NCBI GenBank assembly: GCA_007693585.1
Contig: REDH01000075.1
Span: forward strand, 9,066-73,065
Direction: 5' to 3'
Length of the DNA stretch: 64,000 nt
DNA from: Deltaproteobacteria bacterium
GTDB lineage: Bacteria > Myxococcota_A > Bradymonadia > REDH01
Position 1 is the first letter of the stretch; each line of letters begins with the position of its first letter. Positions 38,868-45,092 of the stretch are shown in pieces. The notes under the pieces were generated by a model. The model made no database searches, was not told the origin of the DNA, and worked only from the letters and a program-made list of their open reading frames with translations. Both the position numbers and the translations under genes were made by a program.

Positions 38868-39839
38868 ATGGACACGAAGCGAGAACCAGTCATGCCCGGG
38901 CAGACGTTCGGAGCGGAACTGGTGCTTCTGGGGCGACCCGTTGCCCACTCGGTGTCGCCGGCCTTCCAGACTGCAGGGTTGCGCGCCTGCGATCTCGGGT
39001 GGCGCTACCGTGCCGTGCTGGCGGACGAGGCCACAGTGGAACGTGCCTTCGCTGCCATGGAGTCGGATGACCTCGTGGGAGCGAACGTCACCCTTCCATG
39101 GAAGGGACTCGCGGCCCGAGGTCGGTTCGCCCCGAGTGACTCGGTCGTCCGGACCGGGGCAGCAAATACGCTCTGGCGGGACGGGCAGGGAGCTTGTCGT
39201 ACCGCCAACACGGATGTGTACGGCGTGCGTGCATCCCTTCACGCTCTCGGCATTCGGGAAGGTGATCCGGTGGAGGCGGTCGTCCTCGGCGGTGGCGGTG
39301 CTGCTGCGGCTGCCATTTCCTGTTGCCGAGGATATCGGCTCCCGGTTCGAGTCGTGGTGAGACGGCCCAGAGCGGTGACTGCCATCCTGGCACAGGACCT
39401 TGTCGAGGAGGTAGACGTGCGGTGCTGGGATGCGAGCGCTCTGGACGACTTGAGGGGTTCGCTCCTCGTGATCGACGCCACTTCACTGGCGCATCAGGAT
39501 CCGCGAGTGGCCTCTCGGGCGTACCGCGTGCTCGGCCTCGCGAAACCGATGGCCGACAGCCGTTGGCTGAGCCTGAGCTACAGCCGCGAACGCCTGTCCT
39601 TCGAGAAGCTGGCCCTGCAGGCAGGCGCACCATGCCTTGATGGTCGGGTGATGCTTCTTCATCAAGGGGCGGTGTCCTTCGAGTTGTGGACCGGCCTTGA
39701 AGCGCCACTGCAGGTGATGGCGAGCGCTCTCGACTCGGCCACGAACGCCATTGCCAGCGGTCGGATGCCCACCGAACCGATCCATGAGGCCGTCCGTGCA
39801 GGCGTGGAGGCGGAACGTTTCCTCGCACGGGGGAGCTGA
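38868..39839 (+). CDS. aroE: Shikimate dehydrogenase (divergent)
   Basis: GRPVAHSVSP, GANVTLPWK, GAANTL, NTDVYG, GGGGAA, MLLHQGAVSFELWTG. Confidence 0.88.
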   Translation: MDTKREPVMPGQTFGAELVLLGRPVAHSVSPAFQTAGLRACDLGWRYRAVLADEATVERAFAAMESDDLVGANVTLPWKGLAARGRFAPSDSVVRTGAANTLWRDGQGACRTANTDVYGVRASLHALGIREGDPVEAVVLGGGGAAAAAISCCRGYRLPVRVVVRRPRAVTAILAQDLVEEVDVRCWDASALDDLRGSLLVIDATSLAHQDPRVASRAYRVLGLAKPMADSRWLSLSYSRERLSFEKLALQAGAPCLDGRVMLLHQGAVSFELWTGLEAPLQVMASALDSATNAIASGRMPTEPIHEAVRAGVEAERFLARGS

Positions 39840-39849
39840 GCGCCTCCGC

Positions 39850-41463
39850 TCAGCGCAGGATACCGCGAATTCCTGCGGACAGGATGGCATCGACGAGCAC
39901 AGTCCGGCTCTGCATCGTCCATGGATAGGCAAGCCCTCCCTGCACTTCGAGGAAGAGTGGCAGGCTGCTCTGCCAACGAAGCGCGACGTGTCCGCCAATT
40001 GCGTGGTGCGTGGTTTGCGCGCCCATCGTGCCAGCGATGGGGTTGGATAGCATGCCCAGTCGCCAGTACTCGACAGCAGCGAAGCCGCTGAGCTGTCGCG
40101 AAGTGATCCCTGCGCGCGAGCCGACGCCTACCCTGGAGAACTGCATTCCGCGTTCGGTGGGTGGACCGTCCTGCGTGGTGAGTGCAAAGTCACGTCGGAC
40201 GTCGACATGAAGTCCGACATGCCGGAAGTGCATGCCCTGCATCAGCCGCAAGGTCATGCCGCGTTCGACCTGTCCGCCGATCTGTCCACTGAAGAGCTGC
40301 GTGCCCGAACCCAGAAGCATGAACACCTCTGTGGTCGAATCGGCGCGAGCCGAGCCGGGCGTGATCAGGACGAGCAGCACGACCGTCCACGCTGCCGATG
40401 GTCGGCTCAGGCGAAGAAGACCGAGAAGCAGGACGAGGCTGAAGAGAAGGGGGAGCGCAGTCAGGGCGCCTCGTGTCGCATGACAGCCTCCAGACCGGTC
40501 ATCCTCCACAAGGCAGTATCCGTCAGATGTGCAGGTTTCCGAGCTGGCACAGTCGGCCACCCCGGTACATTCGAGCGGTGTCGCGATCACGGTGTGCTGG
40601 AAGGTTCCAAGACAGGGCCCGGGAGCGCACGTGACACGAAGCACGAGCCGATCGCCGATTCCCAGCACTTCCGGTCCGGTCGTGCCCGACTGGACACCAC
40701 CGGCTTCCATGTTCAGGTCCAGGCGTTCCAGAGGGCCACTCGTGCCGGCGCATGTTCGCGGCACGCGCCGCCCACGCGCACAGTCCTCATGCACCATGAG
40801 GCGCGTATCCAGTGGTCCGTCGGGAAACGACACGACATGGATTCCCTCCTCGAGAACAAAGCTCCTCGTGGTGCCGCCGACACCGGGGCACGTGGGAGAG
40901 GCACTCCTGGTCGCTTCCGGGACCAACTCCGTACCCGACAGAGTACGGATGGTCACCGCAAGGTCGGCGTCCACATCAGTCACGAGCCAGACGGAATCCC
41001 GTGGAATCTGGAGCCGAAAGGAAGGTTGAAATCCCGGAAGTGGCCTCTCTTCGATGCGCACGAGGAGTGGTGTGCCTACCTCTCGTACAAGGGGAAGGGC
41101 GTTCAGGTCTTCCTCCGTGGGCTCCGCGAAGGAGTGCGGAGCCGGGTTGACGCGCCGCCCCGAGCCGGAACGAAGCAGCGTACACGCCTCATCATCCACG
41201 CGACCACTGGTCTGGGCCTGGACCTCGATCTGGACCCGCGTCTCGGTCCCTTCGGCTTCCTCCAGCGCGACCATCCAGTCCATGGAAAGCCTGCCGATGA
41301 CCGGCTGGGTATACAGGATGCCGGAATCGTCCTGTACTTCGGAAAACTCGAGGGTCTGCAACTCACCGATGTCCTGCACGTCGCATGTGGCACCAAGTGC
41401 CATCACCGCCAGAACAAGGACAGCGCCCTTCAGAGGCGAACGAGGACCGATGGATCGGTTCAT
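39850..41463 (-). CDS. Exported Cys-rich protein with an internal MYXO-CTERM-like motif followed by a second signal peptide and a beta-barrel-like domain
   Basis: Start MNRSIGPRS overlaps the nnr stop (ATGA). N-terminal signal; Cys-rich CTGVADC....C...GYC; SGGC-TM-RLSR; second hydrophobic stretch with ARA-DS; amphipathic strands. Confidence 0.7.
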   Translation of the reverse strand: MNRSIGPRSPLKGAVLVLAVMALGATCDVQDIGELQTLEFSEVQDDSGILYTQPVIGRLSMDWMVALEEAEGTETRVQIEVQAQTSGRVDDEACTLLRSGSGRRVNPAPHSFAEPTEEDLNALPLVREVGTPLLVRIEERPLPGFQPSFRLQIPRDSVWLVTDVDADLAVTIRTLSGTELVPEATRSASPTCPGVGGTTRSFVLEEGIHVVSFPDGPLDTRLMVHEDCARGRRVPRTCAGTSGPLERLDLNMEAGGVQSGTTGPEVLGIGDRLVLRVTCAPGPCLGTFQHTVIATPLECTGVADCASSETCTSDGYCLVEDDRSGGCHATRGALTALPLLFSLVLLLGLLRLSRPSAAWTVVLLVLITPGSARADSTTEVFMLLGSGTQLFSGQIGGQVERGMTLRLMQGMHFRHVGLHVDVRRDFALTTQDGPPTERGMQFSRVGVGSRAGITSRQLSGFAAVEYWRLGMLSNPIAGTMGAQTTHHAIGGHVALRWQSSLPLFLEVQGGLAYPWTMQSRTVLVDAILSAGIRGILR

Positions 41464-42941
41464 CGCGGTCCCAGTTCGGACAGGACGGACGGGACGTTCC
41501 GAGCCACTTCCTGTGCTCGCACCCGAAGGGAGCCGGTGGCCAGAGCGGCTGCGTGGCCCGCCGCGGCATGGACCCAGCAACCGAGGATCGCTGACTCCAG
41601 TGGGGGGAGATGAGGACGCAGTGCTGCAATGATTCCTGCCAGAACATCGCCGCAGCCGGCGGATGCCATCTTCGAGGAACCCGGTTCGACAAAGTAGACG
41701 GGACCATCCGGCGCCGCGATGACTGCCCCAGCGGTCTTGGCGACGACGACGGCATTCCACATGCGAGCGGCTCGCATGGCTGCTCCCGGGAGATCGCCGA
41801 GAACGTCGGCAAGCTCCACGCCGAGAAGACGCGCCAGCTCGGCAGGATGGGGGGTGAGGATTGCACTCCAGTGCTCCGTGGAACCCACGAGTCCACGTGC
41901 CGCCATCAGGTTGAGCGCATCTGCATCGAGGACAAGCGGACCTCGCACCTCGGTCACGGTGGACTCGAGTTCCGCCGCGGCTTCGTCGCTGGTGCCACGT
42001 CCCGGCCCGATGAGCACCACATCGTGCTGGCGCCCCGAGTGCGCAGCGACACACTCCGGTACGGTGCGGAGCACCAGCGAGAGAACGTCCTCCGAGGCAT
42101 CGACGGAGAGAAGACCGGTGCCCGTCATCACAGCGCCCAGAGCTGCCAGCACCGCAGCACCGGGCATCTTCGGCGAACCTGCCCTGAGCAGAATCGTACC
42201 ACTGCATCCCTTGTGCACGTTTCTCGAACGCTGTGGCACGAGCGTGCCAGCCATGCGTCGGTCGACGATCGTCGCAGCGGCGGCCTCGTCGAGCCAGCAC
42301 CGGGGTAGCCCGATGTCTGCCACCTCGACCGTTCCACAGCGCTCGGCTCCGTCGCCGAGGACATGGCACCACTTCAGTGCACCCATGGCGACTGTGTGGG
42401 TTGCGCTCAGCGTTCCAGGATCGCAGCTCCCGGTGTCGCTGTGAACGCCGCTGGGTACGTCCACCGCGAGCACGGTGCCGTCATGTTCACGACGGACGAT
42501 GTCGAGTAGTTGCACCACCTCGCGGGGAAGTGTACCGCTCAAGCCGATTCCGAACAGCGCATCAACGACGACGGGCCTCTGGTGAAGCTCCGCCCGCAGG
42601 CGATCAGGTGAAGCCGGGGCAATCTCGCAGCCGGCCCGACGGGCGATCTCCAGATTGGCGCTGGCGTCGGGAGGGTAGCTGTTCGGGTCGCCCAGCGTCA
42701 GGATGGTCGCACGATGCCCACGACACCGACGAATGCGTGCAATGCAGGACCCGTCACCACCGTTGTTGCCGGGTCCAGCGAGGATCAGCGACGGTGCTCC
42801 GGGCGCCAGGCGTTCGAGAGCATCCGCACAGACCAGAGAGGCTCGCTCCATAAGCACCATACCCGGGATTCCGAGTGAGTCGATGGCGCGCCGGTCGAGC
42901 GCTGCCATCGCTTTGGAGGTCAGGACTCTCTGGTGGATCAA
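41460..42941 (-). CDS. nnr: Bifunctional NAD(P)H-hydrate epimerase/dehydratase (YjeF)
   Basis: [54 protein letters not shown]. Confidence 0.95.
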
Positions 42942-43699
42942 TGTCGACGATGGGGAACGGGGTTCAGGGCGTCGAGCATCTCTCGGACCGCCTGGTCAAA
43001 GCCGACCATGATGGCCCTGGCCACGATGGCATGACCGATGTTGTACTCCACGATCTGCGGAATCGTGGTGAGCGCGCCCACATTTCGGTAGTCGAGGCCA
43101 TGCCCGGCCGCCACGGTCAGTCCGCAAGCCTGCGCGTGCTCGGCTGCGGCCCGGAGGCGGTGCAATTCCCGCTCCTGGTCATCATCCCGACCCGTCGCGT
43201 GCGCGTAGTCACCCGTGTGGAGCTCGATCATCGGAATGCCGAGTTCAGCGCACGCCTCGATCACCTGCAGATCGGGAGCAACGAATGCACTGCAGGTGAT
43301 GCCCGCCGAGCCAAGAGCCTCGCTGAACCTCTCAAGCGAACTCGATGTTTTTCGCACATCCAGCCCCCCCTCTGTCGTGCGCTCCTCGCGACGCTCGGGT
43401 ACCAGCGTCACCATCGAGGGACGCTGGTCGAGCGCGATGCCCAGCATCTCGTCCGTCATCGCCATCTCGAGGTTGAGGCGCGTCGTCACCACCTCGCGGA
43501 GTACCGAAACATCCCGCTCCTGAATGTGCCGTCTATCCTCCCGCAGATGAACGGTAATCTGGTCCGCCCCCGCCAGCTCCGCCACCATCGCGGCCGCCAC
43601 CGGGTCAGGATAGCGTGTTCCTCTGGCCTGCCGAATGGTGGCGACGTGGTCGACGTTGACCCCCAGTGCGGGCCTTGCGTGTTCGCGAGCAAGCGTCAT
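42938..43699 (-). CDS. pdxJ: Pyridoxine 5'-phosphate synthase
   Basis: [41 protein letters not shown]. Confidence 0.98.
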
Positions 43700-43736
43700 G
43701 AACCGGGCTCCGTGTTCTGGCCGTATGGCCGAGCGA

Positions 43737-45092
43737 TCAGCGGTCGAGTTCCTTCACGAGGGTGTCGGCGAGGTCCTCTGCCATCTCTCGGATGCGAGCC
43801 TCGTCCTCGCCCTCCACCATAACGCGAATCTTCGACTCCGTTCCAGAGTATCGCACCAGAAGTCGACCTCGGCCTGCGAGCGACCGCTCGAGGTTCGCCA
43901 TGAGTGCCTGTGAGGCGGGGAGTTCCTCCACCGGCCTCTTTCGCGAAACGGCGCGGTTGACGAGGACCTGCGGTACGCGCTGCATGATCCCGGAGAGCTC
44001 GCTCAGAGGTCGCTGCCGCGAAAGCATCACGTTGAGCACCTGAATCGCTGCGGCAATGCCGTCTCCCGTGGTCGCATGGTCCAGGAACACCAGGTGGCCA
44101 GACTGCTCTCCTCCAAAATTCAGGCCTGTCTCGCGCATGTGCTGCACGACGTAGCGGTCACCCACGTCGGTTCGCACCAGCCCTACCCCTTCGCCGGCGA
44201 GGGCGTGTTCCAATCCCAGATTGCTCATGACCGTCGCCACCACTGTCGGTCCCCGCAGTCTTCGTTCCTGGTGAAGGTGCAGGCCGCACAGGGCGAGAAT
44301 GGCATCCCCATCCACCACCTCGCCGCGCTCGTCGAGAAGGATGAGTCGATCCGCGTCGCCGTCGAGTGCCACACCAAGATCCGCACCATGCTTGCGCACG
44401 GCCTCTGCGCAGCACTCCGGATGCAGACTGCCGCACGACGCATTGATGTTCAGCCCGTTGGGGTGAACCCCCAGCGGAATCACTTCTGCGCCAAGTTCCT
44501 CGAACACGGCCGGAGCCGCTCGATAGCCGGCTCCGTTGGCGCAGTCCACCACAACGCGCAGCCCGTCGAGGTCAAACGTCTCGTGCAGCAGGGCCTTGAG
44601 GTGCGTGATGTACCGGCCGTTCGCGTCCTCGATACGGCGCGCACGGCCAATATCCGCACCCCGCGCCAGATCGGGATGCTCGAGTTCGGACTCCATGCGG
44701 AGCTCGAGCGCGGCCTCCACCTCATCCGGAAGCTTGAATCCATCATGCCCGAACACCTTGAGGCCGTTATCCTCGTAGGGATTGTGGCTCGCGCTGATCA
44801 CGATGCCCGCCTCCGCGCGCATGCTCGTGGTCAGGTAGGCGATACCAGGGGTCGGGATGGGACCAAGCAGGATCACGTCGGCGCCGGTGCTCGTGATGCC
44901 GGCCACGAGCGCAGACTCCAGCATGTAGCCGCTCAGGCGAGTATCCTTGCCGACGAGGATCTTCGGCCGACTTTTGCTCGATGCGCCGAACGTGAACGCC
45001 ACGGCACGCCCGAGACGCAAGGCGTTCTCCACCGTCATCGGGTCACTGTTCGCAAGGCCCCGAATGCCGTCGGTACCAAAGTACTTTCTCAT
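43737..45092 (-). CDS. glmM: Phosphoglucosamine mutase
   Basis: [44 protein letters not shown]. Confidence 0.98.

Follow-up and report, generated by a model that had tools for sequence, protein, structure and literature searches.

A conserved fusion of an exported, MYXO-CTERM-like tagged protein with a predicted outer-membrane barrel in Bradymonadia

The stretch of contig REDH01000075.1 analysed here (the window, 64,000 nucleotides of the genome of a Deltaproteobacteria bacterium of the class Bradymonadia) carries on its reverse strand, at positions 39850-41463, an open reading frame (ORF) of 537 amino acids. It translates without a stop and joins five parts in one polypeptide, namely a signal peptide, an exported cargo domain, an internal MYXO-CTERM-like sorting tag, a second signal peptide and a predicted small outer-membrane barrel. 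Here, we show that the same junction recurs in relatives, and that other relatives encode the two halves as separate genes. As judged from these homologues, the fusion is real and has been kept in evolution, and it unites a two-gene module composed of a cargo and a small barrel. It is likely that the precursor is cut by signal peptidase II, a myxosortase and signal peptidase I to give a surface or outer-membrane cargo and a barrel partner. On re-computation, the coordinates given in the initial annotation were all right: the limits of the ORF, the GGC motif at 40483-40491, the end of an AxA site at 40342, and the 163 residues that follow it. The features of the ORF are as follows.

41386..41463, minus strand: N-terminal signal peptide (residues 1-26), with a basic n-region and the h-region AVLVLAVMAL
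41383..41385, minus strand: Cys27 in a lipobox-like context (LGAT-C-DVQD), non-canonical with Thr at position -1
40504..41382, minus strand: exported cargo domain (residues 28-320), modelled as nested beta-sandwich modules, with a Cys-rich stalk
40513-40629, minus strand: the Cys-rich stalk within the cargo (C279-C317)
40402..40503, minus strand: internal MYXO-CTERM-like tag (residues 321-354), made up of a Cys, a transmembrane (TM) helix and a basic tail
40483-40491, minus strand: GGC of the tag (residues 325-327)
40414-40467, minus strand: TM helix of the tag (residues 333-350)
40402-40413, minus strand: basic RLSR of the tag (residues 351-354)
40342..40401, minus strand: putative second, internal signal peptide (residues 355-374), with the h-region AAWTVVLLVLI and the c-region TPGSARA
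Residues 355-372: second hydrophobic segment; A-R-A is residues 372-374, and the final base of A374 is position 40342
Between A374 and D375: signal peptidase I site, predicted by the -3/-1 rule and by eye
39853..40341, minus strand: predicted 8-stranded outer-membrane-type barrel (residues 375-537, 163 amino acids), beginning DSTTEVF
39850-39852, minus strand: stop codon of the fused ORF

All 12 Cys residues of the ORF lie N-terminal of residue 328, and the base composition is flat over the junction between the tag and the second signal peptide. The fused gene is present as a single copy in its genome.

That the junction is conserved came from an exhaustive search of 1.84 billion representatives, which yielded 102 proteins at E <= 0.001; a word-based protein search with the fused protein had returned the query alone. 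The 102 cluster representatives were sorted with a profile of the C-terminal domain, a protein being counted as fused when its barrel domain begins after residue 100, and they comprise 61 fused, 18 cargo-only and 23 barrel-only proteins. In all 61 fused representatives the barrel is preceded by a Cys and then by two hydrophobic segments with a basic loop between them (a junction script marked 60 of them, the remaining one being the window protein, in which R351 was counted into the TM segment). The closest homologue, P0002, with 43% identity, is likewise fused.

We inspected 24 loci, drawn from 41 relatives' genomes plus added regions. The junction lies in one frame in 18 of them and is split in five (L010, L011, L014, L015 and L021), while L024 is ambiguous; L008 and L023 are cut by contig ends. 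At the split loci, the cargo gene stops directly after the basic tail of the tag, and the barrel gene opens with its own Met and signal peptide. The cargo stop and the barrel start overlap in four of these five loci, as ATGA in three and GTGA in one; the overlap at L021 is longer. Five named genome records are fused with no stop in between (Lujinxingia vulgaris TMQ2 and four metagenome-assembled genomes (MAGs), of which one belongs to Lujinxingiaceae, two to Bradymonadales and one to Bradymonadaceae). Homologues of the same and of the split architecture, for which the initial annotation had proposed to look, both exist.

Where the two genes overlap by four nucleotides, fusion or fission is a one-base event. 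How often such events occurred was estimated on a quick tree of 83 barrels, from which P0058 was left out as too short. The fused and split labels need 20 changes on this tree, at least nine of which are forced by well-supported branches, and they cluster no more than shuffled labels do. When nine possibly fragmentary barrel-only rows are not counted, the number of changes falls to 12 for the remaining 14 split and 60 fused rows. With 12 to 20 label switches on the barrel tree, it follows that fusion and fission happened repeatedly.

How could one precursor give rise to two envelope proteins? We infer every cleavage, final location and pairing in the following scheme. The lipoprotein-like N-terminal signal peptide would start Sec export of the cargo, until the tag helix (residues 333-350) halts the transfer with RLSR remaining in the cytoplasm. 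The next hydrophobic segment, with RLSR as its n-region, could then restart export for the C-terminal domain. Cleavage after A-R-A374 by signal peptidase I would release the barrel, which could then assemble in the outer membrane, and an MrtP-type myxosortase, acting at the invariant Cys327, would release the cargo to the outer membrane or the cell surface. A membrane hairpin of 47 residues would remain, and cargo and barrel would arise in a 1:1 ratio. By analogy with what has been proposed for the TraA/TraB pair of Myxococcus xanthus, the cargo and the barrel probably work together. Prediction of a complex from the cargo and barrel alignments gave a score of 0.00, which is evidence neither for nor against pairing.

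The putative second signal peptide shows an n/h/c design, as assessed by eye and by the -3/-1 rule: RLSR is followed by an 11-residue hydrophobic core and then by TPGSARA. In a profile alignment of 84 barrel-bearing proteins, Ala occupies position -3 in 54 and position -1 in 41, and Pro is the commonest residue three places ahead of position -3 (29 of 84). The first barrel strand has an A-x-A no more than 16 residues ahead of it in 52 of the 61 fused and 14 of the 23 stand-alone forms (three of the stand-alone forms are N-terminally truncated). As the aligned position of the A-x-A does not differ between the two kinds of barrel, the fused forms appear to retain the ordinary N-terminal signal peptide of the split forms. 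Only about eight residues separate the hydrophobic core from barrel strand 1, a spacing which suggests that a barrel reaching the outer membrane would have to be cut off.

The internal tag follows the tripartite design of MYXO-CTERM, with an invariant Cys, a TM helix and a basic cluster that is weak, having two Arg. Cys327 is invariant in all 23 aligned N-domains. In the window protein 183 residues follow the basic tail, so that the tag is not at the extreme C-terminus; it is terminal in 12 of the 18 cargo-only representatives (a hand count) and in the five split loci. TIGR03901, the model that the initial annotation had proposed to run on the motif, is listed at the aligned tag for 12 of the 22 tag-bearing homologues. 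Four of these exceed its curated cut-off of 20 bits, three at internal tags (P0003 with 21.4 bits, P0028 with 21.9 and P0065 with 25.3) and one at a terminal tag (P0026 with 20.6), and eight are below. The related check with TIGR03382 (curated cut-off 15.85 bits) gave scores over the cut-off in three of the 22, namely P0020, P0039 and P0065. The genome that carries the window also encodes a myxosortase on contig C139 (4851-5873), which matches NF040914 with 127.2 bits (cut-off 100) and the MrtP model NF040674 with 327 bits (cut-off 250). In the part of the Haft preprint that concerns it, MrtP is assigned to Bradymonadales.

The tag of the window itself was not scored by TIGR03901. Its locus is absent from the 45 matches of this model in the genome at E <= 10, a genome that has 32 matches over the cut-off, and the isolated 47-residue tag segment has no match to the model at E <= 1. 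The only matches of this segment (E 0.14-0.23) are to the tail ends of three models of MYXO-CTERM-anchored families. A hidden Markov model (HMM) built from the genome's own 32 tails has its best match in the protein at residues 321-356, with 9.7 bits, which is within noise, as random short ORFs in a six-frame scan of the genome reach the same level. The basic tail consists of RLSR only. These results count against processing of the tag, and certain features of the barrel and the lipobox described below add to the case against the proposed biogenesis. We therefore describe the window tag as MYXO-CTERM-like by its apparent design and positional homology, and not as a scored member of the family. 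Apart from these matches, weak ones (E 0.03-0.15) to NF058595 'invert_tail', a lipo-invert putative C-terminal anchoring domain, were seen at the tag or hairpin of P0008, P0028 and P0039.

If the failure of TIGR03901 and of the own-genome HMM, together with the presence of only two basic residues, is taken at face value, the protein could be half a polyprotein. The barrel would then be freed by signal peptidase I, and the degenerate tag would be no substrate for the myxosortase, so that the two-helix hairpin, still attached, and perhaps an N-terminal lipid as well, would keep the cargo in the inner membrane. We regard this as unlikely: the tag Cys does not vary in the 23 rows, aligned tags of homologues pass TIGR03901 or TIGR03382, the same tag is the true C-terminus in split relatives, and an MrtP gene is present in the genome.

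The last 163 residues, which the initial annotation had called beta-barrel-like, are indeed predicted as an 8-stranded barrel of the outer-membrane type. The AlphaFold2 model, made from an alignment of 41 barrel sequences, has a mean predicted local distance difference test score (pLDDT) of 96.1 and a predicted template modelling score (pTM) of 0.87, and its eight strands are 12-17 residues long. Foldseek ranks only small outer-membrane barrels at the top (NspA, OmpA, OmpW, OmpX and Ail). The best is NspA (1p4t; E 6.4e-7, TMq 0.69), and the probability to NspA, OmpA, OmpW and OmpX is 1.00, with TMq of 0.59-0.71. The separate model that the Atlas has of the protein also has OMP_b-brl clusters as its structural neighbours; a feature-based Atlas search gave no usable match. 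The turns on the side of the termini have two, two and four residues, and the loops on the opposite side have 8-11, an asymmetry typical of outer-membrane proteins. Six of the nine nearly invariant barrel residues (G19, T55, P60, P61, N100, L102/G107) fall in these long loops of the model, where they may form a conserved exposed patch; the conserved loop motifs are Q-PPPP and SNxLxxxTG.

Sequence families say less about this domain. The window barrel has no family match, PF13505 (OMP_b-brl) matches three of the 41 aligned barrels with a best E of 0.0013, and the barrel profile has no match among sequences of the Protein Data Bank (PDB). The C-terminal assembly signal of classical outer-membrane barrels ends in an aromatic residue. 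The window barrel ends in Arg, and the caveat of the initial annotation about a missing terminal aromatic residue holds, but it applies to the whole family: among 81 complete barrels the last residue is aromatic in 10, aliphatic in 26 and another residue in 45. The missing aromatic is a family trait and not an oddity of the window copy.

From the missing aromatic residue and the missing family HMM match of the window's barrel, one could argue that the protein is never cleaved, the two helices forming a permanent hairpin that tethers both domains in the periplasm and the C-terminal domain being no membrane barrel. This is distinctly improbable, as the strands have 12-17 residues and the top fold matches are exclusively outer-membrane barrels, a P-x-x-A-x-A consensus is kept ahead of strand 1, and in relatives the barrel has its own gene, whose product starts with an ordinary signal peptide.

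Contigs from two sequencing runs, X2 (covering 40028-40485) and X3 (39700-40513), span the junction with no differences and no gaps; as both runs share their study with the possible source run X1, they are only partly independent of it. A further run, X6, gave only two short pieces of 90-95% likeness, neither of them at the junction. The initial annotation had proposed to inspect reads for a lost stop or frameshift, and the further assemblies show no indel there. Although split relatives overlap by four nucleotides, such that one base lost at an ATGA overlap would fuse the frames, and although another internal-tag fusion of the same genome (M10 protease and SpoIID protein, contig C99) is absent from the relatives searched, the in-frame junction in 61 of 102 representatives, 18 of 24 loci and the nearest homologue P0002, together with the clean X2 and X3 contigs, makes a sequencing or assembly error in the MAG very unlikely. 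The initial annotation would have been abandoned had homologues always been two genes with a read error at the junction, or had the C-terminal part not folded as a barrel, and neither was found.

The cargo domain was modelled from an alignment of 23 rows (pLDDT 88.2, pTM 0.76) as nested beta-sandwiches. In fold comparison, the ColG collagen-binding domain ranks first (Z 9.9, rmsd 2.8 over 106 residues, model residues 74-199), below which there are generic jelly rolls and beta-sandwiches with commonplace Z values; no function is suggested by these. Pfam has no family match on the cargo, and Pfam and NCBIfam together have none on the whole 537-residue protein. Ten Cys residues besides that of the tag are invariant in all 23 rows. 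If Cys27 and Cys327 were both modified, ten Cys would be left for five disulfides, which is a parity argument only. In shorter relatives the Cys-rich stretch beside the tag weakly matches both TraA and the Myxococcus Cys-rich repeat. Weak matches to the Squash family were also noted in eight of the 23 cargo rows (best E 0.0049).

A canonical lipobox, [LVI][ASTVI][GAS]-C, closes the signal peptide of a lipoprotein. The window protein has L-G-A-T-C, with Thr at position -1. In homologues with an intact N-terminus, the canonical [AGS]-C is found in at least 29 of 69 and Thr at position -1 in at least 19 of 69, according to a rough scripted count based on the first Cys downstream of the h-region.

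The kind of fusion described here is already in print, and the protein family is new, having no Pfam or NCBIfam model. The idea is less novel than the initial annotation presumed. In the sections of an mBio 2025 study (PMC11980579) that treat internal MYXO-CTERM motifs, these motifs are described as rare, and MXAN_5598 of M. xanthus is presented as an adhesin region followed by an internal tag and then by a barrel with an OmpA domain. The same sections suggest that MXAN_5598 is a fusion of two genes, liken it to TraA/TraB, whose ORFs overlap, and propose processing and surface anchoring of its N-terminal part, citing internal LPXTG and PGF tags. A literature search on myxosortase and on fusions of MYXO-CTERM proteins with barrels yielded no further account of a junction of this kind, nor an experimental test of one. 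As far as those sections describe it, MXAN_5598 resembles the present protein in layout, with a surface-type part at the N-terminus, a MYXO-CTERM in the interior and an outer-membrane barrel towards the C-terminus. It differs, in a comparison made by description only, in being a large adhesin whose barrel carries an OmpA cell-wall domain, whereas the present protein has a cargo of about 300 residues and a bare 8-stranded barrel without an OmpA domain.

TraA/TraB of M. xanthus is similar in that, according to the same portion of PMC11980579, a MYXO-CTERM protein with a Cys-rich stalk by the tag is paired with a barrel from an overlapping downstream ORF, and the split relatives share the arrangement of a four-nucleotide overlap with it. 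Unlike TraA/TraB, the present family has neither a PA14 nor an OmpA domain, and its members are mostly fused. By score there is no homology: the TraA model NF033759 (cut-off 750 bits) has no match on the window protein; it reaches 18.9 bits on P0039 and 20.2 bits on P0065, two of the 22 tag-bearing homologues, in the Cys-rich repeats only.

A third pair, SgmI (the MXAN_2561 family, NF045522) with the MXAN_2562-family barrel (NF040596), also consists of a MYXO-CTERM-anchored protein followed by a small barrel partner. The genome studied here has a separate, split SgmI-like pair at C139:50931-52525 on the plus strand, on the same contig as the MrtP gene, with a cargo that scores 61.4 bits against NF045522, below the cut-off, and a barrel that scores 222.9 bits against NF040596. 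On the window tag, NF045522 gives only E 0.14. Kinship of the present family with this pair was rejected, as the whole protein has no NCBIfam match and hhalign of the family's profiles against the SgmI/MXAN_2562-type pair gave probabilities of 0.4% and 24%.

The FbcH precursor of cytochromes b and c1 in Bradyrhizobium japonicum is a membrane polyprotein in which cleavage at an internal signal peptide produces two stoichiometric partners. Unlike the present protein, it serves a respiratory complex and has neither a sorting tag nor an outer-membrane product. Type V autotransporters, too, combine an exported passenger with a C-terminal outer-membrane barrel in one polypeptide, but their barrel has 12 strands with a linker running through its pore, and they carry a single signal peptide, whereas the present protein has eight strands and a preceding membrane hairpin with its own predicted cleavage site. 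In the Foldseek ranking, autotransporter barrels are far below 8-stranded barrels. An autotransporter was thus rejected on account of the eight strands and the internal hairpin.

Cutting of the precursor would give stoichiometric envelope pairs from one chain, the basic tail of the tag being reused to start the next signal peptide, a logic that is otherwise familiar from viral and eukaryotic polyproteins. The present protein is a compact test case, having 537 residues, a bare 8-stranded barrel, and natural versions that are fused or split. As the cultured Lujinxingia vulgaris carries the fused form, the proposal made for MXAN_5598 becomes directly testable. There is also a consequence for annotation, since MYXO-CTERM models and gene callers presume a terminal tag.

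The family appears to be confined to the class of the window among the genomes searched. Of 251 genomes sampled across the phylum, 34 have a match to the barrel profile, and none of these has more than one. By family, the counts are 4 of 4 genomes in f1, 23 of 24 in f5, 2 of 2 in f4, 3 of 3 in f3 and 0 of 14 in f2, and all other families combined gave one weak match (E 1.2e-6). The named relatives that carry the family are Bradymonadales.

Upstream of the fused gene lie two housekeeping genes (41460..43699).

42938-43699, minus strand: pdxJ
41460-42941, minus strand: nnr

The longest frame of the fused gene has 840 amino acids and starts from a GTG at 42372, overlapping nnr. A start at the ATG at 41463, which shares ATGA (41460-41463) with the nnr stop, yields a proper signal peptide. 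There is a four-nucleotide overlap both between pdxJ and nnr and between nnr and the fused gene, and a scan of 39500-44000 found no promoter and no terminator. This arrangement suggests that pdxJ, nnr and the fused gene may form one translationally coupled operon of two housekeeping genes and an envelope protein. A neighbourhood with pdxJ and/or nnr recurs at the relatives' loci in families f1, f4 and f5.

The window ORF is not the only one of its kind in this genome. Six of the 32 TIGR03901 tags over the cut-off are internal, the frame remaining open for more than 300 residues beyond an RRRR tail.

C99:13205-13306, plus strand: internal tag
C148:22266-22355, minus strand: internal tag
C189:25772-25870, plus strand: internal tag
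C220:16826-16912, minus strand: internal tag
C220:21586-21672, minus strand: internal tag
C59:26645-26737, minus strand: internal tag

Each of the six runs directly into a new signal peptide, five with a lipobox (for example LGVAGC or LLAAC) and one of the signal peptidase I type. Together with the window ORF there are seven such ORFs, with unrelated partners. It is conceivable that a sorting tag, a basic loop and the next signal peptide form a general grammar for envelope polyproteins in this lineage, for which we see about an even chance and with which the repeated changes between fused and split forms in the present family agree. If so, cells could go back and forth between a coupled operon and a Sec-reinitiating precursor, which three membrane proteases would cut into partners at a strictly 1:1 ratio. 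In one of these ORFs (C99:11327-14977, 1217 residues), a matrixin-type (M10) metalloprotease (PF00413) is joined through a MYXO-CTERM to a SpoIID-domain protein (PF08486) that brings a signal peptide of its own. Its halves match as separate adjacent frames in the 20 relatives searched, and this fusion may be recent or lineage-specific, or an error. Another (C189:23186-27850, about 1550 residues) begins with an uncharacterised part, after which an internal MYXO-CTERM is followed by a lipoprotein signal peptide and then by a C-terminal part that is rich in Cys and weakly matches DUF7107. Since its whole length lies in one open frame in genomes of four families (f1, f2, f3 and f4), it represents a second conserved fused family, and two paralogues of it (L034 and L036) are found on contig C220.

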